The notes under the pieces were generated by a model. The model was given only the letters and a program-made list of their open reading frames with translations. It was not told where the DNA came from and searched no databases. This document shows, piece after piece, positions 1,493 through 21,613 of a stretch of 64,000 nucleotides of DNA (positions are counted from its first letter, which is position 1; each line of letters starts with the position of its first letter). The DNA comes from Chitinophagales bacterium. Lineage in GTDB: Bacteria > Bacteroidota > Bacteroidia > Chitinophagales > JADIYW01. A program made the translations under genes and the position numbers. The DNA lies in the NCBI GenBank assembly GCA_019694955.1, contig JAIBAX010000021.1:989-64988 (forward strand), given 5' to 3'.

Positions 1493-4400
1493 TTATTCAT
1501 AAGCAGCTAACCCACTTATCTCTCTTTCTCCTGCCAATTTCTTTAATTGTGGCACTACGTCTTCCATCAATGCCAATTCTTTTACTCTGCGTTCTTTCCA
1601 ATTTAAATCTAAAGGAGCTAGCAAGTCAGTCAATTTTTCACCGTCAAAAATCATTCGGCTCATTATTTTTTCTATAAAATTTTTCAGGTCTGCCGTTTGC
1701 AAACCATGTTGGTGGGCAATTGCCGCTATTTCTTTGTTATACTTATCTTCAATAAATTGCTCAAAGTTGCGTTTTAATTCTACTTCCGTTTGACCAACTG
1801 TCCAGTCAAGTTGGTCAATAAATTCAGACATATCTTCCTCTTGTTCCATTAAATTGGAATTCGATTTTAGCAAGCTCTTTACCTGTTCCTTGGTCATTTT
1901 TTGCTTACTCGGCTTTTTTCCTAAGTTTTCAGAAGTAAGCTTCATGATATAATCGTAATCAATCACGGCAGAAGCAAACAAAACAAATTCAAAATCCAGT
2001 TGCTGAATTTCGGGTGGTGCATTTTCACCTTCTTTTTGCTGTATTTCCCGTAATTGCTTCGCTGTTTCTAGGTATGAACTTCGGAACTCTTGCAAGGTAT
2101 CGTCAGGCAAAATGGCTTTGATTGTAGCTTTTTGTTGTTCGTCCAAGTCGGTGTATTGGTCCAATTGTGTTTTGAGGCGTTGTACTTCCTTAAAGTTTTG
2201 TACAAAAGCAATTCTTGCTGCATCTCCTTTTAAATTATAAACTTCTTGTGGCTCGCTAACCAAATTATGCTTCTGCATAAATACCCCTAATTTCTCAACG
2301 GCTTCTTTGTACTTTTCAATCATTACAGGGGCAGGGTCAACCAACCAAATTTCTCTTGCCTTTCCGTTATCTTCTCCTGAAAAAAGTGCAATCGCTTGGT
2401 TCACGGTTTCTTGTTGAGAACGGAAATCCAAAATATTGCCGTAAGGTTTGGTGTCGTTTAATACACGATTGGTGCGTGAAAACGCCTGAATCAATCCGTG
2501 AAATTTCAGATTTTTGTCTACATACAAGGTGTTCAGGTATTTGCTGTCAAAACCTGTGAGCAACATATCTACAACTATGGTAATATCAATCTTGTTTTCG
2601 TGCGGATAATCCTTGTTGCTGTATTGTTGGTCTTTTATTCGTCTTTGAACATCCTGATAGTACAAATCAAATTCGTTGATGCTAAGATTGGTATTGAATT
2701 GCTTGTTGTAATCGTCAATAATTTCAGTCAGTGCTTTTTTCTTTTCTTCTGGATTTTGTTTGTTATCCTCGCGTTCCTGTGTCAAATCTTCCTGCAATTG
2801 TTTGATGTCAGCTGCATTTTTCTGATCCCGATAGCCATCGGGATGGTTTCCATTTCCCATCAATTGAGACGGTGGTGAAAACACACAAGCAATGTTTAAA
2901 GGGGTGTATTCCGCATTTTCCTTTTGTTTTTTCTTTTGTAATTCTTTGAAAAGTTCATAGTACTCAATAGCATTATTGATAGAAGCCGTTGCCAAAACAG
3001 CATTGAATCTTCTTGAATTGGTGGCTGCATTGTGTTTTTCCAAGATAGCTTCCACTACGGCTTGTTGGGCAATTTGCTCGCCTGGTTTTGCCTGATGTGT
3101 CCCTTTCCCTTTGAAATAATCTATGTGAAAACGCAGTACATTTCTGTCGTCAATAGCATGGGTGATGGTGTATGCGTGTAGCCTTTTTTGAAAGATGTCT
3201 TCCGTCGTTTTGTATGTGGCAATTTCTCCTTCTCTGATGCTGTAGGTGGCATTTTCATCAAAAATAGGTGTACCCGTAAAACCAAATAATTGAGCATTAG
3301 GAAAAAATGCTTTAATCGCTTGGTGATTATCACCAAATTGTGAACGGTGGCATTCATCAAAAATGAAAACTATACGTTTATCTTTTAATGGTTTTAGTCG
3401 CTCCTTATAAGTCTGAACTCCTTTGTCTGCTTTCTTTTTGTTTCGCGTACTGTTTTCATCTAATGCCAAGCCTAATTTTTGAATGGTAGTCACAATCACT
3501 TTATCGGCATAATCCGTAGAAAGTAAACGCCTTACCAGGGTTTCAGTATTGGTATTTTCTTCAACACTTCCTTCTTGAAATTTATTGAATTCCTCTCGGG
3601 TTTGTCGGTCAAGGTCTTTTCGGTCAACTACAAATAGACATTTTTCAATATCGGGGTTGTCTTTTAAAAGCGTAGATGCTTTGAAAGAGGTCAAAGTTTT
3701 ACCGCTACCTGTGGTGTGCCAAATATAACCGTTTCCTCTATTTTGCTTTACGCATTCTTCAATTGCCTTTACAGCATAAATTTGATAAGGTCGCATTACA
3801 AGCAGTTTCTGTTCGCTTTCTACTAAAACCATATACTTGCTTATCATTTCACCAAGCGTGCACTTACTTAGAAATTTTTCAGTGAATGAATCAAGATGCG
3901 TAATTTTCTTGTTGCTTTCGTCTGCTAATTGGTAAATTGGCAGAAAACGTTCGTCTGCATTAAATTGAAAATGCTGAATCTTGTTGTTGGCAAAATAATA
4001 AGTGTTGGTTCGGTTGCTTACAATAAATAACTGCATAAAGCAAAGCAATGAATTTCCGTAACCGTTTCCCGGTTCATTTTTGTAATCCACGATTTGTTGC
4101 ATTGCTTTTCGTGGTGAGATGTCGAGTTTCTTTAACTCGATTTGAACTACTGGCAAACCATTTATCAATAATATGATGTCGTAGCGTTGATGGCTATTTT
4201 CGGTGTTGATGCGTAACTGACTAATCACTTCAAAGTCATTTTTGCACCAATCTTTGATGTTTACCAAAGTGTAATGCAATGGCGTCCCGTCCTCACGTTG
4301 AAAATATTGTCTTTCACGCAATTTTTTAGAAACAACAAATACATCAGCGTTTATAATTTCCTCTCTAAGTCTTAAAAACTCATTATCAGACAAGTGTACG

Positions 4401-4534
4401 CGGTTGAGTTCTTCAAATTTGGTTTTAAAGTTTTGCTCAAGCGTTTTCCTGTCAACTATGTCGGGTCGGTAAATATATTTCAGCCCTTTAAGTTGCTCTA
4501 TAAGGTATAGTTCTATTTGATTCTCTTTGCTCAT
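1493..4534 (-). CDS. hsdR: Type I restriction endonuclease R subunit HsdR
   Basis: 1013 aa. It has an N-terminal nuclease region, SF2 helicase motifs (HTTGSGKT Walker A, FDECHRSQ DEAD/H box) and a long helical C-terminus, and is adjacent to hsdS. Confidence 0.95.
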   Translation of the reverse strand: MSKENQIELYLIEQLKGLKYIYRPDIVDRKTLEQNFKTKFEELNRVHLSDNEFLRLREEIINADVFVVSKKLRERQYFQREDGTPLHYTLVNIKDWCKNDFEVISQLRINTENSHQRYDIILLINGLPVVQIELKKLDISPRKAMQQIVDYKNEPGNGYGNSLLCFMQLFIVSNRTNTYYFANNKIQHFQFNADERFLPIYQLADESNKKITHLDSFTEKFLSKCTLGEMISKYMVLVESEQKLLVMRPYQIYAVKAIEECVKQNRGNGYIWHTTGSGKTLTSFKASTLLKDNPDIEKCLFVVDRKDLDRQTREEFNKFQEGSVEENTNTETLVRRLLSTDYADKVIVTTIQKLGLALDENSTRNKKKADKGVQTYKERLKPLKDKRIVFIFDECHRSQFGDNHQAIKAFFPNAQLFGFTGTPIFDENATYSIREGEIATYKTTEDIFQKRLHAYTITHAIDDRNVLRFHIDYFKGKGTHQAKPGEQIAQQAVVEAILEKHNAATNSRRFNAVLATASINNAIEYYELFKELQKKKQKENAEYTPLNIACVFSPPSQLMGNGNHPDGYRDQKNAADIKQLQEDLTQEREDNKQNPEEKKKALTEIIDDYNKQFNTNLSINEFDLYYQDVQRRIKDQQYSNKDYPHENKIDITIVVDMLLTGFDSKYLNTLYVDKNLKFHGLIQAFSRTNRVLNDTKPYGNILDFRSQQETVNQAIALFSGEDNGKAREIWLVDPAPVMIEKYKEAVEKLGVFMQKHNLVSEPQEVYNLKGDAARIAFVQNFKEVQRLKTQLDQYTDLDEQQKATIKAILPDDTLQEFRSSYLETAKQLREIQQKEGENAPPEIQQLDFEFVLFASAVIDYDYIMKLTSENLGKKPSKQKMTKEQVKSLLKSNSNLMEQEEDMSEFIDQLDWTVGQTEVELKRNFEQFIEDKYNKEIAAIAHQHGLQTADLKNFIEKIMSRMIFDGEKLTDLLAPLDLNWKERRVKELALMEDVVPQLKKLAGEREISGLAAYE

Positions 4535-4719
4535 TCTTCTTTTAATAAATCTTTGGAGTTAACGTCCAAAATTTTTGCAATTTGGTACAAGTCTTCAATG
4601 ATCGGCTATCTCACATTGCGTGCATACTCGTTTATGGTGTTATAACTCTTGTCCAACTTCTTGGCAAGCCAAATCTGTGAGATGCCTTTTTCCTTCAGTA
4701 CTTCTTTAATTCGATCCAT
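4531..4719 (-). pseudogene. XRE-family HTH regulator (putative R-M controller) interrupted by an in-frame TAG at codon 38
   Basis: Hand translation gives MDRIKEVLKEKGISQIWLAKKLDKSYNTINEYARNVR*PIIEDLYQIAKILDVNSKDLLKEE*. The TAG is at 4608-4606. Both halves together form a standard ~62-aa XRE HTH. The TGA stop overlaps the hsdR ATG as ATGA (4531-4534). Confidence 0.7.
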
Positions 4720-4749
4720 TGAAGCCTATTTAATTCTTATAAAATAGGT

Positions 4750-4878: not shown

Positions 4879-5763
4879 TCACCATTCAAAAAAACCAAAA
4901 AGTCGCTTTTTTTTACCGGAACACCGTGATATTAGTTCTTTCTTGGATATTCCTTTTGACTTATACTCAAACCGCTTTACTTCGGGAAAATGTTCTATAT
5001 ACTTTTTTTCCTGATACAACTTCGTGAGTTTGGCATTGGAGTATTCATTAAAGAAGCTGTCTTCAATATCATATTGCACAATCCTTCCATCTTCCGGAGA
5101 CAGGTAATAATGTATCAGTGTAGCTTCCCGATTGGTCATTTCTACGGCAATATTTATTCTTGCCTTATCCGTAATATTGGGTTGTGACGCATGAATGATT
5201 CTACTATTGAAAAACAAAGCCTGCCCCGGTTGTAGCGGGAAATATTGTATCTCGGAAGATAACTCCATCGCATAGTCATGAAAAGGCACTTGATAGATGG
5301 GCAAAGGTGTTGCCCGAATATTATCCAGAACGTTGTGCGAATTGGGAATAAAACCCAATGTCCCATTATCATTGGTGGAAGGTGTGATGGCTATCCAAAG
5401 GTTATAGGATTGATGGATGGCTTCATCTACAAACGACCAATCCTGATGGGGTGGAATGAGGCTGTTTTGATGGGCTTCTTTTACGGCAAATCGCGGAGAA
5501 ATAAACTTATAGTCAGCGAAATACTCATCTGTAAATGGCAGAATGGCGTCTCTGATATATTGTGCAATTTGTCCAATTTTTTCCGAAGAAGTCAAATCTA
5601 ACGTGACGTGAAACCCAAATGCTTCTTTCTTTGCATTGGGCATAGACTGATAATAATCCAATAATTGCGCAACGATATTCTTGGGTAAAATATCTAACAC
5701 TACAAACCCTTTCTCATCGAGTTCGCTTTGTAAGTGTTTATATTTTTCTTGAAATATGTTCAT
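4879..5763 (-). CDS. Phytanoyl-CoA dioxygenase (PhyH) family Fe(II)/2OG oxygenase
   Basis: 294 aa. It has the PPHQDWSFVDE (HxD) motif and the distal IIHASQPN His. The start overlaps the upstream stop by 4 nt. Confidence 0.85.
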   Translation of the reverse strand: MNIFQEKYKHLQSELDEKGFVVLDILPKNIVAQLLDYYQSMPNAKKEAFGFHVTLDLTSSEKIGQIAQYIRDAILPFTDEYFADYKFISPRFAVKEAHQNSLIPPHQDWSFVDEAIHQSYNLWIAITPSTNDNGTLGFIPNSHNVLDNIRATPLPIYQVPFHDYAMELSSEIQYFPLQPGQALFFNSRIIHASQPNITDKARINIAVEMTNREATLIHYYLSPEDGRIVQYDIEDSFFNEYSNAKLTKLYQEKKYIEHFPEVKRFEYKSKGISKKELISRCSGKKKRLFGFFEW

Positions 5764-7580
5764 GATACCAACCGCTTCGCCAGTCTTATTGGATTGATGC
5801 TATGCGCAAAACTCCATATCTTTTCTTTGATGCCGTTTTTCATCTGCCCACCGAATAATTTCATCATGTGTTGTGTAAGTATTTTATTATAAGTGTTTCC
5901 CGCTGCCACTACCCGTTTGTTCAACTCATCTTTACTCAAATCTTGCCACTGAAATTTAAGTTCCTCTTCCAATGAATAGTCTTCGATTACTTTTCCGGCA
6001 TCATACATTCTGGAGAGTGTTCCGTTATCATATTTCATGAAAAATTGTGGGTCGATTTTATACTTCAACAACGTATCTTTTGTACCCGGTTTGAGGTAAT
6101 AATGTGTGAGTTCAGCAGCTTTCTGCGTAAAACTCAACCCTACGGCCAGCCGAGGCATTTGTGTAATATTGGGTGGCGAAGCATGGAATGTTCTATTGTC
6201 AAAAATCAACGCTTCTCCGGCTTTCATTGGCAGTAACTCAAAGTATGGGAATAATGAGAACATATGTTTTGCCAAGGGCGATGGCACTTGTGGCGATGGT
6301 GATGGACGCACGCTGTTAAAAAATTTATGGCTTCCTTTAATGACGCCCATACATCCATTTTCCATATCTGTATCTACCAATGCTATCCAACACGTAACGG
6401 AACAATGCCTATTTTCATCTTCGACAAATGTCCAATCCTGATGGGGCGGTACTACGCCTTTCGGGTTGGGGTCTTTTATGACAAAGCTGGCAGTGATGAG
6501 TTGATAATCCTGAAGATAAGGTGCAACTTTTGGCATGGCAACTTTCTCTACTGTTTCCATCATCTTTGACACCAATGTTTTATCCTCGTGGTCCATGCCA
6601 ACATAAAAACCGTAATCCGTTTCCTTTTTTATGCCGGATTGAAACAAAAAGTCTTTGAGGGTGGCAATGTCATGTTGGTCTAAAGCAGGAAGTTTTATAT
6701 ATCCATTTTTTTCAAAAAATGACTGATGTTCGGGATTGCTGAATAATGGTTCCATAGTGGATGTTTGAATGTTATGCTCAAAAATGGCTTGCTTAAACTG
6801 TTCTTCGGAGAATTTTCCGGGATGATATTTCTCTGAAGAGATGTGTTGACCGATTTTTGGTTCTTGGATAATCTCAGGATATCTTAGGAATAAATCATCC
6901 GGCATGGCATATTTATGTAAAGTTTGCTTAGTGGCATCGTAGTAAAGCATGAACATATCGGCATCTTTTGGAACTACACCAATGGTTAACGCCAATCTTT
7001 CCTCAGTACTATGGTTAGGCCAAGAGGCATGCATGAGCTTCTGGTTAAACACAAATGCTTCTCCGGTTTTTAGGTTCAGTGTTTTAAGGTATTGGTTGAA
7101 TTTTGTGCGGTCTTGCTCAAATGCGACGGGCAAAGAGGGTGCTCTAAGGTTGTTCTCCAAACAATGGCTTCCATCGATGACCCTGATAGCGCCATTTTTT
7201 TCGTAGGTGTCTTGCAAGGGTATCCATAGGGTGAAAGAACCATAGCGCTCTTCATCTGTAACTGTCCAGTCTTGATGCAGGGGTAGTGGGTTGTTGTCGT
7301 TAGCCTTCTTTTTCAGAAAAGACGTTCCCAGAATCTTGTAATCTGTGAACAATTCCTCCAGTCTATTACCCACGATTGCAAGGATTTCTTCATTGACAGC
7401 CCTCTTCAATGCCAAGTCAGGATGGAAAGAAGTGGAGTAAAAGGAGGTTTCCTGATCTGAGAAGTATTTGTGGTAAACCTGTTTCAGCTGCGTTGCGGTC
7501 GCTCCATCAAGAAAATTTGTCGTAAAATATCCTTTTACGTTCAGCAATTTCTGTTGATATGCATCTCTAACTTGTAGCAT
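5760..7580 (-). CDS. Tandem double-domain PhyH family Fe(II)/2OG oxygenase
   Basis: 606 aa with two complete copies: LHQDWTVTDE...LMHASWPN and PPHQDWTFVEDE...TFHASPPN. It has a 1-nt TAATG overlap with the upstream gene. Confidence 0.85.
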   Translation of the reverse strand: MLQVRDAYQQKLLNVKGYFTTNFLDGATATQLKQVYHKYFSDQETSFYSTSFHPDLALKRAVNEEILAIVGNRLEELFTDYKILGTSFLKKKANDNNPLPLHQDWTVTDEERYGSFTLWIPLQDTYEKNGAIRVIDGSHCLENNLRAPSLPVAFEQDRTKFNQYLKTLNLKTGEAFVFNQKLMHASWPNHSTEERLALTIGVVPKDADMFMLYYDATKQTLHKYAMPDDLFLRYPEIIQEPKIGQHISSEKYHPGKFSEEQFKQAIFEHNIQTSTMEPLFSNPEHQSFFEKNGYIKLPALDQHDIATLKDFLFQSGIKKETDYGFYVGMDHEDKTLVSKMMETVEKVAMPKVAPYLQDYQLITASFVIKDPNPKGVVPPHQDWTFVEDENRHCSVTCWIALVDTDMENGCMGVIKGSHKFFNSVRPSPSPQVPSPLAKHMFSLFPYFELLPMKAGEALIFDNRTFHASPPNITQMPRLAVGLSFTQKAAELTHYYLKPGTKDTLLKYKIDPQFFMKYDNGTLSRMYDAGKVIEDYSLEEELKFQWQDLSKDELNKRVVAAGNTYNKILTQHMMKLFGGQMKNGIKEKIWSFAHSINPIRLAKRLVS

Positions 7581-8500
7581 TATGAGAATACTGCTTTAAG
7601 TTTACTTAGAAAAGATTTTTTCTCCTCATAACCCATCTCATCAAACCGCTTACCGTATATTGTTTTTTTAAAATCATCATATGTCATATCATAGGGTTTA
7701 TACTTAAATGTTTTGATGACTTTTGAGTTGCCGGATTTCTCCCATGGGTTGAATTTCATATAAAATTCTTTATCTACTTCTAGCATTTGCACAGTAGAAG
7801 GACTTTTTTCCGGATTCATGTGGTAGTGTATAGATGGCAGTTCCTCCGGAATAAGGATGAGTTGTATGGCCAACCGCAATTCATTGGTATGGTTTTCTGC
7901 GGAGTAATGGACGATGCTATCGTCTAGGATTACTGCATCTCCGGCTTTTGTCTCCAAGGGAATCAGGTCGTTTGCTACGATGGGTTGCTTAAGGTTTTTT
8001 AATTCCCAATGTATCATGGGGCCTCTGATTTCGCCACAGCGCTTATGTGTTCCCGGGACTACTTGCAGCGTGCCATTTTCAATGGTTCCATCTACCAACG
8101 GACACCAGATGGAAACTGATGTTGCTTTCCGCTCATCGATGAAAGCCCAATTCTGGTGCAATGGCACTTCCCCGGTTTCTGTTTTTTTGCGAATAAAATT
8201 GGCAATAATGGGTTTATACCCTTTTAGGTAATGCTTGTAGTGTTTTTCAAATGCCTGCGTAATGATTTCAAACACTTTACGCTTGTAGTCGATGTTTTTG
8301 TCAATGAATGTAAAGTCATAGGTAATCATTTCTTTCAGGTTTTTCTCTTCTGCAGAAATTAAACCGCCACTTTCCGGTAAAGCGTCAAAATAAGCATTTT
8401 TCAATGACACTACCTCTTCTTCACTCAGGAAAGGCACTTTTACATATCCTTCTTTTTGAAAACGTTCTTCCAAAATAGGATCATTCAATACTGGTCGCAT
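7580..8500 (-). CDS. PhyH family oxygenase paralogue with an HxN variant metal motif
   Basis: 306 aa. It reads PLHQNWAFIDE (Asn codon AAT at 8152-8150) with distal IVHYSAEN, and shows the same fold signature as its neighbours. Confidence 0.8.
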   Translation of the reverse strand: MRPVLNDPILEERFQKEGYVKVPFLSEEEVVSLKNAYFDALPESGGLISAEEKNLKEMITYDFTFIDKNIDYKRKVFEIITQAFEKHYKHYLKGYKPIIANFIRKKTETGEVPLHQNWAFIDERKATSVSIWCPLVDGTIENGTLQVVPGTHKRCGEIRGPMIHWELKNLKQPIVANDLIPLETKAGDAVILDDSIVHYSAENHTNELRLAIQLILIPEELPSIHYHMNPEKSPSTVQMLEVDKEFYMKFNPWEKSGNSKVIKTFKYKPYDMTYDDFKKTIYGKRFDEMGYEEKKSFLSKLKAVFS

Positions 8501-8601
8501 GTATAATTTTTTCTATAACTTAAATTTACAAAATATCTATGAAAAGATGTTGAAACGGAATCAAAGTTACCTAAATATATGAAGAAATCATAAAATTAGG
8601 T

Positions 8602-8680
8602 AGCGTTTATTTAACGCTTAGAGGGTTTGAAATCCTCCAAGCGTTTAGACCTAACAGGTTTTGAAAACCTGTCAGGTCTA
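8602..8680. repeat. Three abutting or overlapping hairpins in the divergent intergenic region
   Basis: Hairpin 1 is AGCGTT/AACGCT (8602-8618). Hairpin 2 is AACGCTTAGAGG-gtttgaaat-CCTCCAAGCGTT (8613-8645). Hairpin 3 is TAGACCTAACAGGTTTT-g-AAAACCTGTCAGGTCTA (8646-8680). Confidence 0.5.
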
Positions 8681-8731
8681 TAAATCGGCTGAATGAATTG
8701 TCTTTTCAGAAGAATATCCTAACTTTAAACC

Positions 8732-9625
8732 ATGAACTTATTCAACATATTTAGGCAGAAGAGCAAATCGTATGTTTCTGAGGATGTCGGCAGGTTTTAT
8801 GATGAACACTATGAGGCTTTTAATAAAGTTTATGGGGAGGTTATCCAAGCATTCCGAACCAATGACTTAAGCAAGATTTTAGATTATCAGATTGCTCAGA
8901 TTGGCATAGAACCACACCATACTATTTTGGATGCTGGTTGTGGTGTATGTGGCCCGGCGAGGTATTTTGCCAAACATACTCAAGCAAATATTCATGCAGT
9001 AACCATTTCGCAAGTGCAGTATGAGGTGGCAAAAGGTAAAATAGAAACGGAAGGGCTTGCCGACAGATTACAAGTACACCGTCAGGATTATCATCAATTG
9101 AGGAAGCGGTTTGCTAAGGACTTCTTTGATAGGATTTATTTTTTAGAGTCTTTCGGTCATTCTAATGATAAGGAGCGATTGCTAAAAGAATGTTGGAAGG
9201 TGCTAAAACCGGGAGGAGAAATCTATATCAAAGATTTGTTTATCAGGAAAGTTGCCAACGCCGGAACACAGGCAAAAATTGATCGTGAGATTGTAAAAAT
9301 CAATAACGCCTACCATTATGATGTGGCTGACTTAAATGCGTTCTTAGACATTGTCAGAAACTTAGGTTATGTTATTAGCTTTGTCAAAACTATTGATATC
9401 AGCTTGGAGGATTTTGAAAACCTCGCTATCTCGAATGAGTGGCAGGAACTCACCGGCATAGCCACCATTGACAACTGGACAAATTATGTTTTCCCTATCG
9501 ATTTTTTCGAAGTTAAACTGTATAAACCTGAGTATGATACCAGCAAAGGAGTACATCGCTATTTTATCCAGAATCTCTTCCAGCTTAAAGTGAATCACGT
9601 TGACGAAAATGATTTAGATGCTTAA
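8732..9625 (+). CDS. Class I SAM-dependent methyltransferase (tocopherol/sterol/cyclopropane-FA MT-like)
   Basis: 297 aa. Motif I is ILDAGCGVCGP, followed by AVTISQVQYEVAK and post-II FLESFGH...LKPGGEIYIKD. Confidence 0.85.
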   Translation: MNLFNIFRQKSKSYVSEDVGRFYDEHYEAFNKVYGEVIQAFRTNDLSKILDYQIAQIGIEPHHTILDAGCGVCGPARYFAKHTQANIHAVTISQVQYEVAKGKIETEGLADRLQVHRQDYHQLRKRFAKDFFDRIYFLESFGHSNDKERLLKECWKVLKPGGEIYIKDLFIRKVANAGTQAKIDREIVKINNAYHYDVADLNAFLDIVRNLGYVISFVKTIDISLEDFENLAISNEWQELTGIATIDNWTNYVFPIDFFEVKLYKPEYDTSKGVHRYFIQNLFQLKVNHVDENDLDA

Positions 9626-10622
9626 CAGATGGCTAAAGAATAGGATTTATATCACCTTAGTACATAAGTTTAGCTTATTATTTTCACTTTTGTATTTTAC
9701 CATTTTCTATTTTGACATCCCGTTAACCTTGTTATTTAAGCATCTTTCGGCATCACTGATGCTATGTATCGGTATTGCCGGAATCGGTTATTTATTCAAT
9801 GATTATAATGATATTGAACAAGATAAACTTGCCCGTAAACACAATATATTTCTACAATTGAGCAAAAGTAAGGTATATATCCTCAGCTTTCTATGCTTAA
9901 TTTTCGCAATCTTGCCATGGTTTATTTTGCCTTTTGACAGGATTTCTTTGTGTTTGGTGCTTGTAGAATTCTTCTTGTTTTATGCGTATGCATTTCAGCC
10001 GTTTCGTTGGAAAGAAAAGGCTTGGCTGGGCGTACTTGCCGATGCCGGATATGCGCATGTCATTCCTGCTGTCTTAGCTATTTATACTTTTAGTCAAATT
10101 CCGAATGAACTAGGTTCATTTAACCATCCGATTTGCCTACTGATCATCTTTGGAGTTTGGCTGGTAGCAAATGGTATCAGAAATATATTATTGCATCAGA
10201 TAGAAGATTATGAACATGATAAAAAGGCCGCAACGAAAACATGGATTCAGACCATCGGAATGGGGAGAATGAAAAAATATATCCTCCGTTTTCTGATTCC
10301 TTTAGAGTGGTTATGTTTCTTGTCTCTGCCCATTATTCTTGGGTTTAGTTATAAATGGCTTTTACTGCCCTACATCCTATATTTTCTGCTATACTTCCTG
10401 AAGAAATGGATGATAAATCATTATCCATTCTTCCGAAAATCTGCACTTGAAAATGAGCAGTTATTTTTATTTTATAATGGGAATATGCTGAACGAGTACT
10501 ATGAAAAATATTTACCCCTTGTGTTGATTATTTTTTTTAGCTTTTTTGATGTCAACTATCTTTTCCTACTGGGTATTCATCTGTTAATTTTCCTTCCTAT
10601 TTATTTCAACAAATCAACTTAA
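9618..10622 (+). CDS. UbiA family prenyltransferase (polytopic membrane protein)
   Basis: 334 aa and very hydrophobic. It has the Asp-rich motifs NDYNDIEQD and EDYEHD. The start overlaps the methyltransferase stop by 8 nt. Confidence 0.85.
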   Translation: MLNRWLKNRIYITLVHKFSLLFSLLYFTIFYFDIPLTLLFKHLSASLMLCIGIAGIGYLFNDYNDIEQDKLARKHNIFLQLSKSKVYILSFLCLIFAILPWFILPFDRISLCLVLVEFFLFYAYAFQPFRWKEKAWLGVLADAGYAHVIPAVLAIYTFSQIPNELGSFNHPICLLIIFGVWLVANGIRNILLHQIEDYEHDKKAATKTWIQTIGMGRMKKYILRFLIPLEWLCFLSLPIILGFSYKWLLLPYILYFLLYFLKKWMINHYPFFRKSALENEQLFLFYNGNMLNEYYEKYLPLVLIIFFSFFDVNYLFLLGIHLLIFLPIYFNKST

Positions 10623-11340
10623 AATACTTATTCCTGAAGTCCTCATTCACAAAATAAAATAAACCTGCATAAAAAAGAATGGCATATGCTGCTCCGCAAG
10701 TAGCACTTAAGATTATGTGATCAAAGAAAAAAGAGTGTTCTCTAAAAATGAAGAAACTGATACTGCTTGCAATCAACCCTATGATTACTGGAAATGGTAA
10801 GGACGTAGTATTGATACTACTAATTTGCAAGTTACACATACTGCCGGGCAATAGTCGAAAAAAGAGGTATAGTCCCCATAATGAAAATATCAACTGCGGA
10901 ATATACAATAGTATTATATCAAATACTTTTCCTTCTTTACTATAATAATCCATGTGAAAGACATTCGTTATAACAATGTAATTATTATAATGTGTAATCA
11001 GGTCTAGACCAAGATGTACAAATATTCCTACTATTAAAGACCACAAGATTACAGATTTGCTATTATTGGGTGGGATATGCGCTTCTTCGATATTAAAATA
11101 GTGAAAGATGGGCTTTTTGAGAAAATGCCTCCATATATAATATAGAAGAACTGACAAAGGAATCAGAACAAATAATATACATGTCCAAGTAAAGCTAAAC
11201 ATATGAAATCTACTCCCTGTTAGCACAATATCTAAATCAGGTACTACTGAAGCAACACAGAGTGCTTCTACATCAACATGTTTTTTCAGCAGTCTTTTTA
11301 TGGGTTTAGAAAACCCAATATGAGCAACGGTGAACGGCAT
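10606..11340 (-). CDS. DUF4184-like membrane protein (putative metal-dependent hydrolase fold)
   Basis: 244 aa. It has the N-terminal MPFTVAH, multiple TM segments and HLGLDLITH. Its 3' end overlaps the convergent UbiA gene by 17 nt. Confidence 0.55.
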   Translation of the reverse strand: MPFTVAHIGFSKPIKRLLKKHVDVEALCVASVVPDLDIVLTGSRFHMFSFTWTCILFVLIPLSVLLYYIWRHFLKKPIFHYFNIEEAHIPPNNSKSVILWSLIVGIFVHLGLDLITHYNNYIVITNVFHMDYYSKEGKVFDIILLYIPQLIFSLWGLYLFFRLLPGSMCNLQISSINTTSLPFPVIIGLIASSISFFIFREHSFFFDHIILSATCGAAYAILFYAGLFYFVNEDFRNKYFKLIC

Positions 11341-11346
11341 TCAAGG

Positions 11347-12198
11347 TTAATGATCTGTTCTATTTTTTAATTCTAGCAATGCCCACAATCCATAAATATT
11401 TGTATAAGGATCTGGTTCAGCGAATTCATTTCCAGACATAGCACCATATCCGTTTTTCAGATATAATTTTAGTTCTTTTGTCCAATCCATCAAGGGTATT
11501 TTATTGTCTCCGGTAGCATACAAATATGCTGCCATGGAAATCACTCTGATGGCCCATCCATCTTTTATATCCAATTCTTCCTTTGGCAAATTCAGGTTCT
11601 CAATAACTTTCGATTTGAAATAAGCTAAGCGGTTTGTAACTGCCGTATCTTTTTGATTTAATGATAAATTTTTAAATGCCAGCAATCCTTTTGCTTGCAT
11701 GACAGGAGTAGTGTCATAATAATGCTTCATCGATTCCAGCGCATTAATAGGCATGGGGTATTTTCCTGCATATTCTGACCATACAGAAATGGTCACATCA
11801 TTATTGACATAATCATCAAAATTATTGCGTTTCAGTACATCTAAATTTTGCTCTATCACCTCATTCGGAGGAAGTGCTCCTGTAAGTTTTCCATACAGCT
11901 TTAGAACGTAGTTATTATTGCCCCTAGATTCACTTATCTTATCTTCATCCGCAATCGTCTTTCCTAAATTAAAATGATGATCAAGTAGTACTATCAAATA
12001 AACAATTTCTAAATTGCGCTCATACTTGTAATGCGTTGAAACATACAAATCACTGATGTCAATTGCCTTATTAATTTCTTTCCTTACACTATCTTTCTGT
12101 GCATCCGTGAGCATAGTGACCTGATCTTCAAAATTTGCTTGTTGACCATAAGCGGTTACAAATAAAATGCTTAAAAATAAACTGTACAGAATCTTCAT
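11347..12198 (-). CDS. Secreted hypothetical protein
   Basis: The ORF track gives 11347..12234. I prefer the Met at 12198 because it starts a signal peptide (MKILYSLFLSILFVTAYGQQ). No family was recognised. Confidence 0.55.
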   Translation of the reverse strand: MKILYSLFLSILFVTAYGQQANFEDQVTMLTDAQKDSVRKEINKAIDISDLYVSTHYKYERNLEIVYLIVLLDHHFNLGKTIADEDKISESRGNNNYVLKLYGKLTGALPPNEVIEQNLDVLKRNNFDDYVNNDVTISVWSEYAGKYPMPINALESMKHYYDTTPVMQAKGLLAFKNLSLNQKDTAVTNRLAYFKSKVIENLNLPKEELDIKDGWAIRVISMAAYLYATGDNKIPLMDWTKELKLYLKNGYGAMSGNEFAEPDPYTNIYGLWALLELKNRTDH

Positions 12199-12380
12199 CT
12201 TTATCCTTTTAAAAGTTACTATTGAAAAAAGCATGCCAATGATTCATTGGCAACTAAAATATATTCAAATTTATACTTAATAACATTTCTATCCAAATTA
12301 CAATAGAAAAAAATGGTTAATAGCACCAAAAATTACAGAAATCTTGAGAATTAGCGTACCTTGTACGCTCAATTTATACT

Positions 12381-12896: not shown

Positions 12897-12926
12897 GATG
12901 CGTTAAGGTTGGCAAGATTAAATTAA

Positions 12927-12959
12927 AATGCGTTGATGTAAAAATCAGCGCATTTTTTT
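12927..12959 (+). terminator. Rho-independent terminator of slyD
   Basis: The stem AATGCGTTGAT/ATCAGCGCATT has one wobble and is followed by TTTTT. Confidence 0.6.
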
Positions 12960-12976
12960 ATGCCCATTTTCTAATG

Positions 12977-13081
12977 TAATAACGGGATTTTTAAAGGTAG
13001 TCCACTCTTGTTCTCGTGTCTTCACGAGAACAAGGGATTAGGTTTTATTAATCGGCAATTTTATAATTACTTTTGTGATAA
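12977..13081 (+). repeat. Dispersed repeat family B, copy B1 (hairpin element)
   Basis: About 105 nt containing a perfect 12-bp hairpin, CTTGTTCTCGTG-tctt-CACGAGAACAAG (13007-13034). It aligns end to end with the reverse complement of 23780-23885. Confidence 0.7.
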
Positions 13082-13209
13082 CCTAAGAAAACATTAGAAA
13101 TTACTGCAAGAAAATTCTACTTCATATCTATTTCTGTACTCATTTTTCTATACTCATGGCTATTTTGTAAATTTCCTTTCGTCACAAAGTCTTATGCTTT
13201 TTCTGGGTT
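13080..13209 (+). mobile_element. MITE-like repeat family A, copy A1 (short variant)
   Basis: It shares the core GAAATTACTGCAAGAAAATTCTACTTCATATCTATTTCTGTACTCATTTTTCT with 28081-28135. The right end ...GCTTTTTCTGGGTT matches the TIR. It lacks about 45 nt that are present in A2. Confidence 0.6.
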
Positions 13210-13220
13210 TAAGTATCGTT

Positions 13221-13251
13221 AAAATAAAAAATCCCGACCATCCGGTCGGGA
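13221..13251 (-). terminator. Rho-independent terminator of the 13287..13889 gene
   Basis: The stem TCCCGACC/GGTCGGGA is followed by a T-run on the minus strand. Confidence 0.7.
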
Positions 13252-13286
13252 CTCTTTATTCGGCCTTTCGAATTTTTGTTGTGTGA

Positions 13287-13889
13287 TTACGCTTCTGCAG
13301 GCGTAACAGTTTCTTTTACTTCAGCAGCAACTTTCTTTGCTCTTGAAGTAGCAGCTTTTGCTTTAGTTTCTGCTTTAGCAACAGTTTTCTTTGCAGTAGC
13401 TGTAGTTTCTTTTACTGCTTTCTTCGCTGTTCTGGTAGTTTTCTTAACTTCTTTTTCCAGTTCTTTTTCAGCTTTGTCAACAGCAGTTTGTGCTTTCTTC
13501 ACAGTTTTGTTAGCAGTAGCTCTTGCAGTTTTTACAGCTTTCTCAGCTTTGTCCATAACATCTTTAGCTGCTTTTTCTACTCTTTTTTCTCCTGTATTGA
13601 TTTGCTCATAAACGAAGTCGAATACTCTGTCGATACGTACTTTTACTTCATCCAAGAAGTTTTCTGTTTCAGCCAAAACATTTGTTTTGATCTGATCAAC
13701 ATTTACTAATTCGTTTAAACGACTAGCAATTTTTTCTTGGTACTCAGACAAGTTTTCTTTTTGTCCTTCTACTTGTGTACGTAAGTCTTGAGTTAAGTTT
13801 TGGATGTTCTCCTTTACTTCTTCAATTCTTGCATTTACATCATTCATCAATGATTCGAAAGCGGCCTGTAACTTTTCGTTCTGTTTCAT
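13287..13889 (-). CDS. Coiled-coil protein with a Lys/Ala-rich histone-H1-like C-terminal tail
   Basis: 200 aa. The N-terminus has heptad-like helices. The C-terminus carries degenerate KKAVKETTATAKKTVAKAETKAKAA repeats. Confidence 0.65.
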   Translation of the reverse strand: MKQNEKLQAAFESLMNDVNARIEEVKENIQNLTQDLRTQVEGQKENLSEYQEKIASRLNELVNVDQIKTNVLAETENFLDEVKVRIDRVFDFVYEQINTGEKRVEKAAKDVMDKAEKAVKTARATANKTVKKAQTAVDKAEKELEKEVKKTTRTAKKAVKETTATAKKTVAKAETKAKAATSRAKKVAAEVKETVTPAEA

Positions 13890-14219
13890 TTTAAATAATT
13901 TTTTTGTTTTAAATTATGATGCAAAGGTAGGACAGATGTATTAATTCACTGTTATTGCGCTTTTAAGAAAAATTGATTTAAAAATGTTTTATTTATCAAT
14001 TCTGTGTGAACTAATTTTTACCACCGTTATTAGAATGATGATAATTTTATCAAAAGTTATATTATATAAGGCTTTCAACTTGTTATGTAAACAAATCTTA
14101 TTAATATTGATTTAAGAAAAGAAATTGCACTCCAAATATTAGGTTGCATTTATTGCGTAACATAAAATGCGGAACGGCAAAAAATATACATACACTTTCT
14201 CTTATACATTATCTGTTGC

Positions 14220-16826
14220 TTATTTTTCTAAAGCATCTTTTATCAGGAACAAGATATATTTTCTATGCGCACTTGTTGTTGCATCACCTGTCGGAATTTC
14301 CATCCATTTTTTAATTTTATTCAACTCCGCCAATACTTGTGATTTTACTGCGGGCATGGTGTTACCTTCTGTAATAAAAAGTTTCAATAATCTATTGGTA
14401 TATTCTATTTGCAAATTTTGTCTTTTTATAGATATATTAGATGTGAGGTCTTCTTTAAAAATACCCTCAGTCAAGTCGCTCAGCATTTCGGATAAAACAT
14501 ATTTATTGCCATAAGTTTCTGAGTCAACGATTCTATCTAAAACTTCTCCATTCAAAACATGGTCAAACACTCCTTTTTGTATATTTAGTGTGCGTTCCAA
14601 TATCTGTGGATCTTGTGGTCCTTGCCCCAAAGAGAATCCTCTTCTCTGCATTTGCAGATAATTTGCCAAGTCACCGGGAACATTCAAAGCATTTTTTGAA
14701 AATGCCAAATCAATTACTGTTTTCATGGCGTTCTTTTGATCCGCATATGCTACCGGTGTAAAAGGTTTGGTAGTGCTTTTCTGTTCAGGAAAAGATCTGT
14801 CCATATATACACCACCAATTTGTTTTGAAATAATGGTCAATGCTCTTCCTTGCGTGCCTGTCAAAATCAGGTATGCATTCCTTAGTGCTTGATAGGACTG
14901 ACCGTCTTTTATCATTTTTGTTTTTAGTACATTCATCACGCTGTCGGCCATTTTAAACTGCATGGTAGCATAAGCAACAGGATTGCTAGAGTGGTCGAAT
15001 AACATAATGCGGGGATCCATACCTTTACCAGGAGAACGCATGTCGTCGGCATCATTAAAGAAACGCAATTCAGGTTGTGTTGATTTCATCAACAACTGAT
15101 TTAATCCCTGTTTTTCTGCATCCAGGTTATCAAAGTTGAGATAACCATATTGGATAGCCCATATATCATAAGGGCCGGGACGAACATCATAAAACAATCC
15201 CTGCTTATTTTTGTCGGAAGAAATATTGGTTGGCTTATAATCCATCACGGAAGCACTCAGCCCAACACGGCGACCTAATGCTTCGTCTTGTACTTGCTCC
15301 ATATTATTCATCATACTAGCGATGAAATTATGATTCAACCCAAATGTATGTCCTACCTCATGCATCACTAACTCAAACAGTGTTTGTTTCAGAAACTCAT
15401 CCTTCTCTAATTGAGAAAAATCATATGCCTCTAATACTGCATTACCATACAGAAGATTCTGATGCATGACTTCACCCATCTGACAAAAGTGTGCATCTTC
15501 AATAGTATTATAATCTTCAAAATGATCTAAGGCTACCAAATCAAATAACTCCTGCTGACGCAAGCGGTTGGTAAAATAAACATATTCCAACATGATATCA
15601 GCGCCGAGTATTTGTCCGGTAAGCGGATTCGCCAACGAGGGACCATATCCGCCAAAAGGAGGTTGTGGTGAGGATGTCCATCTAATGACATTATAGCGAA
15701 TATCCCCAGCGTCCCAATCTGCTGTATCCGGTTGTTCATAACATACGACTGCGTTTTTAAACCCTGCTTGTTCAAAAGCAATATTCCATGACTCAACAGC
15801 CTCTTTTATAATCGGTCTGAATGCTATAGGAGTGGTATTCTCCATCCACCATACGATGGGTTCAACTGGTTCTGAAATCGCTAATTCGGGGTTCTTTTTC
15901 ACCAAATGCCATCTATCGATTACATCTCGATAAGGTACTGCGCTGGTGGTGGTCATATCTGTTATCTGTTCCGTAAAATATCCCACACGAGGATCTTCAA
16001 AGCGAGGTTTGAAATCATTCTCCGGAACAGCAATGATACTGTGTTGTATCTTCACACTTACTGACCTCGGGTCTGTAACATCTTCTCCACCAGAAAAGGA
16101 AGGATACTTGTTGTCATAAACATACTCTACGAATACGTCTGTATTTTGAGGATAGTTTTTTATGGATGAGTATTTTGTTTTTTCTACACTTAAAGCACCA
16201 AGATTGAAAGCATTAAAGGGCGTTTCACCTTGTCTGGAAGAAGGTTTTATTTGCGATAATGTTTCCTGCAAAAACACCTTGTCAGCATCCACCAAATATC
16301 TTTTCGCTTTTGCACCGGAAGTGTCTTGTGTCATTCCACTGATGGTTAAAGTGGTTATGATGGCATTGTTGATATTTGCATTGGCGGCCTTGCTCAAAGC
16401 ATTCTCTGGATCATAGTAATAGGCTGTATTCTGAATAGAAAATTCTAGCTTATCAAAATACTTATTTATCTTCAATATCTTGGTGTCGCGATATGCTCCT
16501 CTAAAGAACCCCGTTGTAAGTACACCATCGGAAACTGATTTAAAATAAATGTATAATTTACCTAATTTATCCTCGCTTATTTCTATGAATGATTTTCCCG
16601 TAACGGTATCTTGATAAATAGGAAATAGACCATCTATTTTTTTACATTTTTTGGTCACTTCTGCAATAGGTTTGAAAGCAGGTTCTTCTTTTTTTGGAGT
16701 GGGTGCTACAACCGTAGGAACGGTATCTTTTTTCACTGCTTCGTTCTTTTTTCCTTTATCATTTGTGTTAGCAGGTGTTGTCGTAACAACACAAAAAATG
16801 AACAGTGATAATAATAAATGCTTCAT
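14220..16826 (-). CDS. Secreted zinc-dependent metalloprotease (large Bacteroidota family)
   Basis: 868 aa with a signal peptide and the HExxH motif VMHEVGHTFGLNHNF. Confidence 0.85.
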   Translation of the reverse strand: MKHLLLSLFIFCVVTTTPANTNDKGKKNEAVKKDTVPTVVAPTPKKEEPAFKPIAEVTKKCKKIDGLFPIYQDTVTGKSFIEISEDKLGKLYIYFKSVSDGVLTTGFFRGAYRDTKILKINKYFDKLEFSIQNTAYYYDPENALSKAANANINNAIITTLTISGMTQDTSGAKAKRYLVDADKVFLQETLSQIKPSSRQGETPFNAFNLGALSVEKTKYSSIKNYPQNTDVFVEYVYDNKYPSFSGGEDVTDPRSVSVKIQHSIIAVPENDFKPRFEDPRVGYFTEQITDMTTTSAVPYRDVIDRWHLVKKNPELAISEPVEPIVWWMENTTPIAFRPIIKEAVESWNIAFEQAGFKNAVVCYEQPDTADWDAGDIRYNVIRWTSSPQPPFGGYGPSLANPLTGQILGADIMLEYVYFTNRLRQQELFDLVALDHFEDYNTIEDAHFCQMGEVMHQNLLYGNAVLEAYDFSQLEKDEFLKQTLFELVMHEVGHTFGLNHNFIASMMNNMEQVQDEALGRRVGLSASVMDYKPTNISSDKNKQGLFYDVRPGPYDIWAIQYGYLNFDNLDAEKQGLNQLLMKSTQPELRFFNDADDMRSPGKGMDPRIMLFDHSSNPVAYATMQFKMADSVMNVLKTKMIKDGQSYQALRNAYLILTGTQGRALTIISKQIGGVYMDRSFPEQKSTTKPFTPVAYADQKNAMKTVIDLAFSKNALNVPGDLANYLQMQRRGFSLGQGPQDPQILERTLNIQKGVFDHVLNGEVLDRIVDSETYGNKYVLSEMLSDLTEGIFKEDLTSNISIKRQNLQIEYTNRLLKLFITEGNTMPAVKSQVLAELNKIKKWMEIPTGDATTSAHRKYILFLIKDALEK

Positions 16827-16844
16827 TCTTGAAATTTAAATAAC

Positions 16845-16870
16845 AAAGGTAGCCAAAATTGACTACCTTT
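16845..16870 (-). terminator. Candidate terminator after the Cys-rich gene
   Basis: The stem AAAGGTAG/CTACCTTT has T-rich sequence following on the minus strand. Confidence 0.4.
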
Positions 16871-16892
16871 TATATGTTAAAAACTGTAAAAA

Positions 16893-17303
16893 TTACCCTT
16901 GTCGCTGTTTCAAGTCCATACCACAAGTAGGGCATTTCCCTGGGGCATCGGAATAGCCTCCTTCACATTTCATTGGACAAAAATAATTGGCTGTAGAAAA
17001 AGGATCTTCGGACGTTGTTTTAACGGAAGAGGATGCGCCTAAATCTTGTTTAGTGGTATCCACTGCATCTGCTTTAGTAGAATCTTTTTGGCAGCAGGCA
17101 TCTTCACTTCCTGCTCCATCACAAGATTTTTTACAGCAATCCTCTCCACACTGTTCTCCCCCGCAACATTTTTCTTTACAGCATTCTTTCGTACATGTGC
17201 ATTTTTCTTTACATTCTTTGTTTTTGCATGCTACAAAAACGATTGCAGACATCAACACCATTGACATTACTGCTAATAAATTTCTAATTCTCATGATTTT
17301 CAT
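16893..17303 (-). CDS. Cysteine-rich lipoprotein with a C-terminal heavy-metal-binding domain (HMBD)
   Basis: 136 aa. It has the lipobox FVAC and the Cys-dense stretch CKEKCTCTKECCKEKCCGGEQCGEDCCKKSCDG..ACC. The C-terminal YFCPMKCEGGYSDAPGKCPTCGMDL matches the YxCPMH...GxCPxCGMxL type motif. Confidence 0.75.
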   Translation of the reverse strand: MKIMRIRNLLAVMSMVLMSAIVFVACKNKECKEKCTCTKECCKEKCCGGEQCGEDCCKKSCDGAGSEDACCQKDSTKADAVDTTKQDLGASSSVKTTSEDPFSTANYFCPMKCEGGYSDAPGKCPTCGMDLKQRQG

Positions 17304-17313
17304 TTTAAAAATT

Positions 17314-19542: not shown

Positions 19543-19593
19543 ATATATAATTGTTAATAATGAATAATAGAATCGAATTTCTACTATTTACTA

Positions 19594-21595: not shown

Positions 21596-21613
21596 CCATT
21601 AATCAAAAATATA

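Follow-up and report, generated by a model that had tools for sequence, protein, structure and literature searches.

Gene clusters for PhyH-type dioxygenases, a methyltransferase and a UbiA-family prenyltransferase in uncultured Bacteroidota: a possible pathway for tailoring isoprenoid envelope lipids

What does a bacterium make with four PhyH-type dioxygenase domains, a methyltransferase (MT) and a membrane prenyltransferase of the UbiA superfamily encoded side by side? This question is raised by a locus in a 64,000-nucleotide stretch of DNA from a Chitinophagales bacterium (assembly GCA_019694955.1, contig JAIBAX010000021.1), referred to here as the window. An earlier note on the same DNA had described the locus as an orphan cluster without a polyketide synthase (PKS), a nonribosomal peptide synthetase (NRPS) or a terpene cyclase, and had suggested a prenyl-lipid or prenylquinone-like product. 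The locus is indeed a genuine biosynthetic cluster, conserved and uncharacterised, with no PKS, NRPS or classical terpene cyclase; as to the product, a prenyl-lipid is plausible, but nothing tied the cluster to the synthesis of quinones or tocopherols. Our best reading, which we consider about evenly poised between right and wrong, is that a large gene-cluster family, of which this locus is a pared-down member, makes and tailors a membrane-anchored, isoprenoid-based envelope lipid. With the same middling confidence, we take this to be a prenyl-anchored lipid that would be glycosylated and exported in relatives and would occur in a stripped-down form in the window.

All open reading frames (ORFs) described in the note were reproduced at their positions in the ORF list and translations, and in profile hidden Markov model searches, which the note had called for, the PhyH, UbiA and class I MT genes all matched above the Pfam gathering thresholds. 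Three PhyH (PF05721) genes lie on the minus strand: PhyH3 (7580-8500, 306 amino acids [aa], 70 bits), a single-domain protein and the first gene of the dioxygenase operon; PhyH2 (5760-7580, 606 aa), a fused double dioxygenase with two PF05721 stretches (145 bits); and PhyH1 (4879-5763, 294 aa, 77 bits), a single-domain accessory paralogue; the cut-off is 22 bits. On the plus strand, the class I S-adenosylmethionine (SAM) methyltransferase MT (8732-9625, 297 aa) matches Methyltransf_11 (63 bits versus a cut-off of 21), Methyltransf_25 and CMAS, and is followed by the UbiA-superfamily gene (9618-10622, 334 aa; PF01040, 47.3 bits versus 34.2). The overlaps reported earlier were all found in the sequence: the PhyH2 stop and the PhyH1 start share an ATGA at 5760-5763, the PhyH3 stop and the PhyH2 start overlap as TAATG at 7580, and the UbiA start codon lies 8 nt inside the end of the MT gene. 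MT and UbiA are therefore translationally coupled, as are the three PhyH genes. Eight hydrophobic segments were found in UbiA and none in the MT and PhyH proteins; UbiA is predicted to be an integral membrane protein and the others are predicted to be soluble.

To see whether this arrangement is conserved across Bacteroidota, we collected the neighbourhoods of UbiA homologues together with 28 further loci from species-representative genomes, found by scanning with eight UbiA sequences. All of these loci came from metagenome-assembled genomes (MAGs), mostly of Chitinophagales, with some Saprospiraceae, one Flavobacterium and one member of the Competibacteraceae. Among 30 nonredundant loci, PhyH genes were present in 22 (86 genes) and an MT gene in 21. 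The layout of the window, with a PhyH3-type gene and then a double PhyH gene divergent from MT and then UbiA, recurred in many independent loci (L005-L008, L010, L015, L019, L020, L036, L038 and L039), which bears out the earlier expectation that these genes would be found together elsewhere. Altogether, dozens of MAGs share the arrangement, chiefly those of Chitinophagales, Saprospiraceae and Flavobacteriales. In L039, on a contig of 763 kb, housekeeping genes flank an island of just four genes (UbiA<-MT | PhyH3->PhyH2), so the unit can be as small as that. In L004, whose UbiA is 56% identical to that of the window, a PhyH3 orthologue adjoins MT.

Comparison domain by domain resolved orthologous groups corresponding to PhyH3, PhyH2-N and PhyH2-C and, less often, PhyH1 (L005, L015 and L020), together with a variable set of distant paralogues. 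Identity between the window and Chitinophagales loci was ~70% for PhyH2 and ~65% for MT, as against ~39% for UbiA. The invariant core is MT, PhyH3 and the fused double PhyH rather than UbiA. Orthologues of all three also occur together in a Xanthomonadales MAG, in which no UbiA was seen, and the double PhyH family (663 matches at E<1e-10) is broader than the UbiA subfamily; the MT family gave 1148 matches at E<1e-20. Among the matches listed for the double PhyH and MT, every name given by the source was that of a MAG, with no cultured strain.

We therefore drew a second sample that was unbiased for UbiA, consisting of metagenome contigs found through the double PhyH (37 loci of at least 12 kb). 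Wzm, an ABC-2 permease, was encoded in 27 of the 37, a PhyH3-type protein in 26, MT in 19, and the glycosyltransferase family GT2 and Wzt in 18 each. UbiA-family domains were found in 13 loci, ketoacyl-acyl carrier protein synthase III (KAS III) in 11, B12-dependent radical-SAM enzymes in 10 and trans-polyprenyl diphosphate synthases in 7. The dominant gene order was Wzm>PhyH3>PhyH2>PhyH...>MT>Wzt. The cluster is thus statistically associated with UbiA, polyprenyl diphosphate synthases, glycosyltransferases and Wzm/Wzt and, because Wzm/Wzt exporters and glycosyltransferases are its commonest partners, the family looks like one for envelope lipid or glycolipid biosynthesis. Other recurrent partners were AsnB-type amidotransferases, radical-SAM proteins with SPASM domains, sulfotransferases, a short-chain dehydrogenase/reductase (SDR), a cytochrome P450, FdtA and a fatty-acid-desaturase-family protein, which adjoins PhyH3 in L060. 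L040 carries a CrtI-like oxidase and, as the only locus to do so, a GT87 gene, and some loci hold 13 to 14 PhyH genes and a WelO5-type gene.

Two further features of the relatives were observed. In L011 (2-1276), L022 (8647-9930) and their relatives, the usual domain order is inverted, with SPASM on the N-terminal side of the radical-SAM core, and in a version of the cluster from a soil metagenome (L107, 11988-13598), a tyrosinase-domain protein with DUF7868 directly follows the double PhyH. The radical-SAM/SPASM proteins, B12-dependent radical-SAM enzymes, MT and oxygenases also led us to consider a ribosomally synthesised and post-translationally modified peptide, which we rejected, as the spacers of 0 to 230 bp leave no space for a precursor gene in the core. 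A lipid or glycan product is favoured over such a peptide because the partners include glycosyltransferases, Wzt_C domains, KAS III and polyprenyl synthases. We found no description of this gene cluster in the literature searched, where only a Xanthomonas lipopolysaccharide (LPS) cassette and an unrelated Ubi-297 operon surfaced.

The prenyl component of the proposed product rests on UbiA and its partners. Both Asp-rich motifs of UbiA, which the earlier note had called intact, are present (N61-D62-xx-D65-xxx-D69 and D197-xxx-D201) and invariant in 19 homologues. Such homologues are rare, forming 42 protein clusters among 5.8 billion. Among NCBIfam models, UbiA scored 20 bits against ChlG (cut-off, 313), 20 bits against DGGGPS (cut-off, 353) and ~20 bits against a generic prenyltransferase, with no MenA or UbiA equivalog match at E<=0.01, and it does not classify as a housekeeping MenA, UbiA, CyoE, ChlG or DGGGPS enzyme, an identity that would have spoken against the proposed cluster. 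The nearest solved structure in a profile search was chlorophyll synthase (E 1.6e-4), largely through generic superfamily motifs, and a chlorophyll-synthase-like role was rejected for that reason. UbiA belongs to a rare, deep-branching and unassigned subfamily of PF01040. In several relatives, it is fused to a glycosyltransferase of family GT4, with six or seven of the UbiA domains forming the N-terminal half of proteins of ~760 to 817 aa that have GT4 at the C terminus. In some Chitinophagales clusters (L007, at ~11.0-12.9 kb, L013 and L019), the first pair is followed immediately by another MT and a divergent paralogue of UbiA, and these duplications suggest two rounds of prenylation and methylation.

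Ahead of the first DDxxD, at -5 and -4, the trans-polyprenyl diphosphate synthases found in relatives have Ala or Ser (LLHGASLFHDDIID). Under the established chain-length rule for such synthases, small residues there indicate medium- or long-chain products. Because these dedicated synthases are of the trans type and have a medium/long-chain motif, a prenyl diphosphate donor is favoured; because of the UbiA-GT4 fusions and the Wzm/Wzt partners, the prenylated product would be glycosylated and exported in relatives.

The MT has a Rossmann-like fold and a glycine-rich SAM motif and is a class I SAM methyltransferase. Its orthologues are 51 to 87% identical, with an invariant DAGCGxCGP motif. A structural model (predicted local distance difference test [pLDDT] score, 84.6) retrieved TleD, MitM, AtmM, SpnF, RebM and the geranyl diphosphate C-methyltransferase GPPMT as its top Foldseek matches, along with SDMT/PEAMT, with TM-scores of 0.6 to 0.77 to MitM, TleD and RebM. 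The nearest structures at the sequence level agreed (TleD, MitM, AtmM/RebM, SpnF and GPPMT), and the C6-farnesyl diphosphate (FPP) methyltransferase and BezA were also among its sequence or fold neighbours. The best structural match, TleD, is a prenyl C-methyltransferase, and AtmM and RebM are sugar O-methyltransferases.

The metal-binding motif that the earlier note had seen in the four PhyH domains is present in all of them, as HQDW...HAS in PhyH1, PhyH2-N and PhyH2-C and as HQNW...HYS in PhyH3, and the common C-terminal extension is kept as HY[YH]...F..Y within each orthologous group. PhyH1 and both halves of PhyH2 have the facial triad (H-x-D...H) and the Arg that binds 2-oxoglutarate (2OG), and these residues are conserved in orthologues; in PhyH2 homologues, which are 47 to 72% identical, H, D, H and R are invariant in both halves. 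An AlphaFold2 model of PhyH2 (pLDDT, 90.4; predicted TM-score, 0.84) has two jelly-roll domains (N, ~aa 1-285; C, ~aa 286-606), each with H-Q-D...H...R and each followed by the shared extension of three strands and a helix; the C-terminal helix is of low confidence. The predicted fold is the double-stranded beta-helix of PhyH-type Fe(II)/2OG dioxygenases. Its Foldseek neighbours were SnoK/SnoN, MysH, SptF/AndA, AviO1/EvdO2/HygX, SyrB2, TlxIJ and PHYHD1 (target-normalised TM-scores, 0.43 to 0.63; identity, 13 to 21%), with a probability of 1.00 for SnoK, MysH, SptF, SyrB2 and PHYHD1. These neighbours are multi-step tailoring oxygenases of natural products that act on sugar or terpenoid moieties, and they include the meroterpenoid enzymes SptF, AndA and TlxIJ. 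Kinship with ectoine or amino-acid hydroxylases, which had been named as a ground for abandoning the idea of a lipid substrate, was not seen (NCBIfam ectoine hydroxylase, 17 to 27 bits versus a cut-off of 336).

PhyH3 departs from this pattern at one position. In 15 of 15 orthologues, H-Q-N or H-E-N replaces H-x-D, such that the carboxylate ligand (Asp or Glu) of the facial triad is Asn, with no change at the distal His or at the Arg that binds 2OG. These orthologues score 350 to 520 bits in most loci. A search of 1.84 billion representatives with PhyH3 returned 2987 relatives at E<1e-3, 209 of them at E<1e-30. Among the best 150 of the 2987 matches, H-x-N occurred in 57 of 256 aligned domains; 55 of the 57 kept both the distal His and the Arg, one ended before these sites and one (P0327) had lost them. 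Such strict retention of His, His and Arg speaks against simple decay. We infer that PhyH3 is catalytically active; Asn may serve as an iron ligand or PhyH3 may be a non-catalytic partner, and the sequence fits either. A role as a halogenase was rejected, the motif being H-x-N rather than H-x-A/G and WelO5-like genes being present in some relatives only. We found no report of an H-x-N motif in 2OG oxygenases in the literature searched, itself a limited set.

A natural fusion bears on how PhyH3 might work. P0283 (984 aa) joins an orthologue of PhyH3 (56% identity, with HQN) to an orthologue of PhyH2 (39%) and, together with the TAATG coupling of the two genes in the window, this argues that PhyH3 and PhyH2 form one three-domain assembly. 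Fungi offer a precedent for PhyH-type oxygenases that work as heterodimers or fusions: in TlxI-J, two homologues of alpha-ketoglutarate (alpha-KG) oxygenases, of which one is altered, pair with each other, and TalA is a fused form (PMC11880133). The alteration differs, in that TlxI lacks the 2OG-binding Arg, whereas in PhyH3 this Arg and the two His residues are intact and only Asp is changed, to Asn.

The likeness to fungi extends beyond this pair. The 3,5-dimethylorsellinic acid (DMOA)-type meroterpenoid pathways for austinol, anditomin and talaromyolide (AusE, AndA, SptF and TlxI-J) likewise combine UbiA, an MT and PhyH-type alpha-KG dioxygenases, use several paralogous dioxygenases for serial oxidations and include partnered or fused dioxygenases in which one partner has an altered active site (TlxI-J and TalA; PMC11880133), and SptF, AndA and TlxIJ are among the structural neighbours of PhyH2. 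However, the cluster described here is bacterial, identity is only 13 to 21%, the relatives are tied to Wzm/Wzt export and glycosyltransferases, and no PKS, flavin-dependent monooxygenase or epoxidase, or Pyr4-like cyclase was found in the window or in the relatives examined. By analogy, the cluster seems functionally most like fungal meroterpenoid tailoring and, in its context, most like ABC-transporter-dependent loci for lipid-linked glycans. By their defining features, it belongs to neither of these, nor to the quinone pathways. The enzyme families are all known and their combination is undescribed in the literature searched: an invariant triad of an H-x-N PhyH, a double PhyH and a RebM/TleD-type MT, accompanied by Wzm/Wzt, long-chain prenyl synthases and a UbiA of a rare subfamily, frequently a GT4 fusion.

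If the locus tailors an envelope lipid, the following route can be proposed. At the cytoplasmic membrane face, UbiA would take a prenyl or polyprenyl group from its diphosphate and attach it to an acceptor. The co-translated MT would then methylate the product, either on carbon at a prenyl double bond, in the manner of TleD and GPPMT, or on O or N of the head group. Successive Fe(II)/2OG-dependent oxidations would be run by PhyH3, with its H-x-N motif, and the double PhyH2 as a three-domain oxygenase assembly, and PhyH1 would contribute one further oxidation. In relatives only, glycosylation (by GT4 fused to UbiA and by GT2), B12 radical-SAM methylation, sometimes sulfation, and Wzm/Wzt export would follow; the window would make an unglycosylated core lipid or would depend on genes elsewhere in the genome. 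We infer the lipid nature of the substrate, the order of the steps and the nature of the acceptor.

Several observations weigh against this proposal. No acceptor-forming enzyme is encoded at the cluster, and the 64-kb window has no Wzm/Wzt, which would mark a glycan cluster and which most relatives do have, and no glycosyltransferase adjoining the cluster. UbiA was not found within 10 kb in about two-thirds of the PhyH2-sampled loci, so the triad of MT and PhyH proteins may act on a non-isoprenoid moiety. Several of the nearest structural relatives act on sugars (RebM and AtmM for MT; SnoK/N, EvdO2, AviO1 and HygX for PhyH), and likeness to characterised enzymes is remote throughout (13 to 24% identity). 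The MT-UbiA and PhyH halves are separable, because in L002, the nearest relative (UbiA, 70% identical), the order is MT-UbiA-DUF4184-hypothetical-FKBP and then dnaA, and the PhyH genes are missing at the site. A role of the C-terminal tails as amphipathic membrane anchors has weak support, their hydrophobic moment being only at about the 99th percentile of the protein's own windows.

The main rival, which we judge unlikely, places the chemistry on a lipid-linked sugar. Here UbiA, like the mycobacterial decaprenyl-phosphoryl-phosphoribose (DPPR) synthase, would join a polyprenyl phosphate to an activated sugar phosphate, MT and PhyH would modify the sugar, and the product would be the donor or primer for a Wzm/Wzt-exported glycan. 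The sugar-modifying enzymes just named fit this idea, as does the prominence of Wzm/Wzt and glycosyltransferases next to the core, and the best NCBIfam matches of the N domain of PhyH2, far below their cut-offs, are to 2OG oxygenases of a "sporadic carbohydrate cluster." The mycobacterial decaprenyl-phospho-arabinose/galactan locus and Xanthomonas LPS cassettes likewise bring a UbiA-family enzyme, glycosyltransferases and Wzm/Wzt together in one locus; a Xanthomonas cassette of the BXO8 type has been reported with PhyH-family genes, so that UbiA, PhyH and wzm/wzt all co-occur there. A neighbouring gene for a DUF4184 protein, possibly a membrane hydrolase, could supply a phosphatase. Against these points, the flavin adenine dinucleotide-dependent DprE1, the SDR DprE2 and a GT-C (arabinosyl)transferase were found neither in the window nor in minimal clusters such as L039, GtrA is also lacking from the window, and by these features the cluster is not of the DPPR type. 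The UbiA profile retrieved no DPPR-synthase structure at E<=10, with no specific similarity detectable, and the trans-type prenyl synthases of relatives point to a diphosphate donor and not to a cis-polyprenyl phosphate acceptor. The window also lacks the exporter and adjacent glycosyltransferase that such a glycan would call for. A related comparison is with wzm-wzt-wbdD of Escherichia coli O9a, which encodes a chain-terminating MT: relatives of the cluster likewise have the MT between wzm and a wzt with a carbohydrate-binding Wzt_C domain, but three to fourteen dioxygenase domains go far beyond the needs of a terminal cap, and the window is without wzm/wzt.

A second alternative, which we regard as improbable, is a non-canonical terpenoid pathway in which MT, like GPPMT, BezA and the FPP methyltransferases, would C-methylate a prenyl diphosphate, UbiA would be a membrane terpene cyclase and the PhyH proteins would decorate the result to give a polyoxygenated homoterpenoid. 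The translational coupling of MT to UbiA resembles known pairs of an MT and a cyclase, such as GPPMT with 2-methylisoborneol synthase, and TleD of teleocidin synthesis is likewise an MT tied to prenyl handling; GPPMT, TleD, the C6-FPP methyltransferase and BezA are all neighbours of MT; the NCBIfam matches of the PhyH proteins include PtlH, which hydroxylates a terpenoid and belongs to the PhyH family; and a minimal cluster of this kind would need no acceptor. Yet identity to these systems is 13 to 24%, the partner here is a UbiA membrane protein and not a soluble class I cyclase, and no sequence evidence links this UbiA subfamily to known UbiA-type cyclases. The UbiA-GT4 fusions, tandem UbiA paralogues and long-chain-type synthases fit prenyl transfer or anchoring better than C10 to C20 cyclisation.

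Slimmer still are the chances of the prenylquinone- or tocopherol-like pathway that the earlier note had favoured, in which UbiA would prenylate an aromatic quinol precursor, MT would methylate the ring in the manner of gamma-tocopherol methyltransferase (gamma-TMT), 2-methyl-6-phytylbenzoquinol methyltransferase or UbiE, and the PhyH proteins would hydroxylate. Quinone synthesis by MenA/UbiA with UbiE/gamma-TMT does pair a UbiA-fold prenyltransferase with a class I MT, the fold and motifs of UbiA are also those of aromatic prenyltransferases, and the LESFGH motif of MT presumably resembles that of the gamma-TMT/RebM group. But the matches of MT to the NCBIfam quinone models UbiE, UbiG and MpqE reached only 23 to 37 bits against cut-offs of 103 to 378 (37 versus 158 for UbiE), and quinone or tocopherol ring methyltransferases were absent from its top PDB and Foldseek matches, in libraries that may lack a gamma-TMT model. 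With TleD, MitM, AtmM/RebM, SpnF and GPPMT as its nearest structures, the description of MT as tocopherol-MT-like was not borne out. UbiA, of a rare subfamily, has no equivalog-level match, no aromatic-precursor gene occurs in any of ~100 loci, and the surrounding genes, rather than belonging to quinone synthesis, encode exporters, glycosyltransferases and radical-SAM enzymes. Fortuitous adjacency of two unrelated operons, for which L002 and the many PhyH/MT clusters without UbiA might be cited, has very little to commend it, given that the same divergent layout recurs across orders even with UbiA only ~39% identical and that L039 forms an isolated four-gene island among housekeeping genes.

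Turning to the surroundings of the cluster, the divergent intergenic region (8501-8731, with no assigned strand) is presumed to carry both promoters. Described earlier as a hairpin-rich region of ~230 bp, it spans 231 bp and holds three inverted repeats (8559-8611, 8613-8645 and 8646-8680). The last is a near-perfect palindrome with 17-nt arms, and its neighbour at 8613-8645 is similar. The palindrome at 8646-8680 matches metatranscriptome contigs over only ~35 nt, with unrelated sequence on both sides, and looks like a dispersed element of the repetitive extragenic palindromic type. A role as a cluster-specific operator was rejected, as the hairpin occurs in unrelated transcripts too; the palindrome core showed no enrichment beyond chance in the window, and comparison of the spacer with Rfam gave no credible RNA family or riboswitch match. 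A scan for sigma-70 promoters found 36 against 29 expected, with a consensus that differs from the promoters used by Bacteroidota. Metatranscriptome contigs of at least 95% identity span parts of PhyH2, PhyH3 and an FKBP gene, with MT and UbiA uncovered, a weak sign that PhyH2 and PhyH3 are expressed.

Two minus-strand genes converge on UbiA. The first encodes the DUF4184 membrane protein (10606-11340, 244 aa; Pfam, 71 bits versus a cut-off of 25; six hydrophobic segments), an occasional partner that also adjoins the cluster in L002, L005, L011 and L012. It is distantly like YdjM or a Zn-dependent phospholipase C, which makes it a putative membrane metal-hydrolase. The second encodes a 295-aa protein (11347-12234) with an N-terminal signal-like segment and no Pfam or NCBIfam match. 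Homologues are confined to three close relatives (L002, L003 and L004), in each of which the FKBP gene lies next to them. We rejected both it and FKBP as pathway members, as their position reflects plain synteny with close relatives, and the secreted protein that had been placed at the locus is probably not part of the system.

Beside the cluster, where the note had placed a restriction-modification island, lies hsdR, for a type I restriction R subunit (1493-4534; Pfam and NCBIfam), and a PD-(D/E)XK nuclease gene lies at 1036-1455. Between hsdR and PhyH1, a small XRE-type helix-turn-helix gene (4531-4728, minus strand) is broken by an in-frame TAG (…EYARNVR*PIIEDLYQIAKILDV…) and so is either a pseudogene or read through. 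The proposal that the cluster is accessory DNA is unproven, in that its GC content (0.34-0.41) is like that of the rest of the window and MT-UbiA-DUF4184-hypothetical-FKBP is syntenic with L002 near dnaA, which lies at 24252-25688 in the window. Although the cluster family has a patchy distribution, synteny of the MT-UbiA block holds within this lineage. Between the FKBP gene and dnaA (12897-24251), the window contains ~11 kb that L002 lacks, where we observed a 200-aa coiled-coil-like protein, a DUF4953 Met-zincin, a TonB-dependent receptor, an OmpA-family protein, two unknown proteins, tRNA-Pro and tRNA-Ser. Moreover, the genes found ahead of MT in L002 are located at 49.8-59 kb of the window, and the region near the origin is therefore rearranged.

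Elsewhere in the window, a block at 29707-37671 encodes an FkbH_N-domain protein (576 aa), an MBOAT protein (489 aa), a weak GDSL-like match (315 aa), an Acyl_transf_3 protein (381 aa), a weak GT4 match (413 aa) and an unknown 407-aa protein. This content suggests that a surface polymer is acylated or glycosylated by the products of the block, which has no sequence relationship to the PhyH/MT/UbiA cluster. The only nucleotide-sugar genes in the window, for a GDP-mannose 4,6-dehydratase and a GDP-fucose-synthase-like epimerase, lie beside purine genes at 45550-47634 and are ordinary. A type IX secretion system sorting domain and SusC-like receptors in the window fit Bacteroidota, and the source setting is wastewater or activated-sludge metagenomes.

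If our reading of the cluster as a pathway for envelope lipids is right, Chitinophagales, Saprospiraceae and Flavobacteriales that are abundant but uncultured in activated sludge and other waters would carry a dedicated pathway for oxidised isoprenoid envelope lipids. These would be a new lipid class, relevant to biomarkers and to cell-surface and floc properties, made by a bacterial counterpart to the multi-oxygenase chemistry of fungal meroterpenoids and by a new subfamily of UbiA enzymes, many of them GT4 fusions. More tentatively, and with more doubt than belief, we suggest that poly-oxygenated, methylated polyprenyl lipids or glycolipids form a new envelope class in Bacteroidota, with the H-x-N PhyH as a distinct non-haem-iron subunit, or a non-catalytic but obligatory one, of a three-domain assembly with the double dioxygenase; the H-x-N subunit would then be a new variant of the 2-His-1-carboxylate paradigm. 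The four-gene minimal form offers an experimentally tractable system and, whatever the product, the H-x-N clade, fused to canonical partners, poses a direct question on metal ligation and subunit roles in Fe/2OG enzymes.

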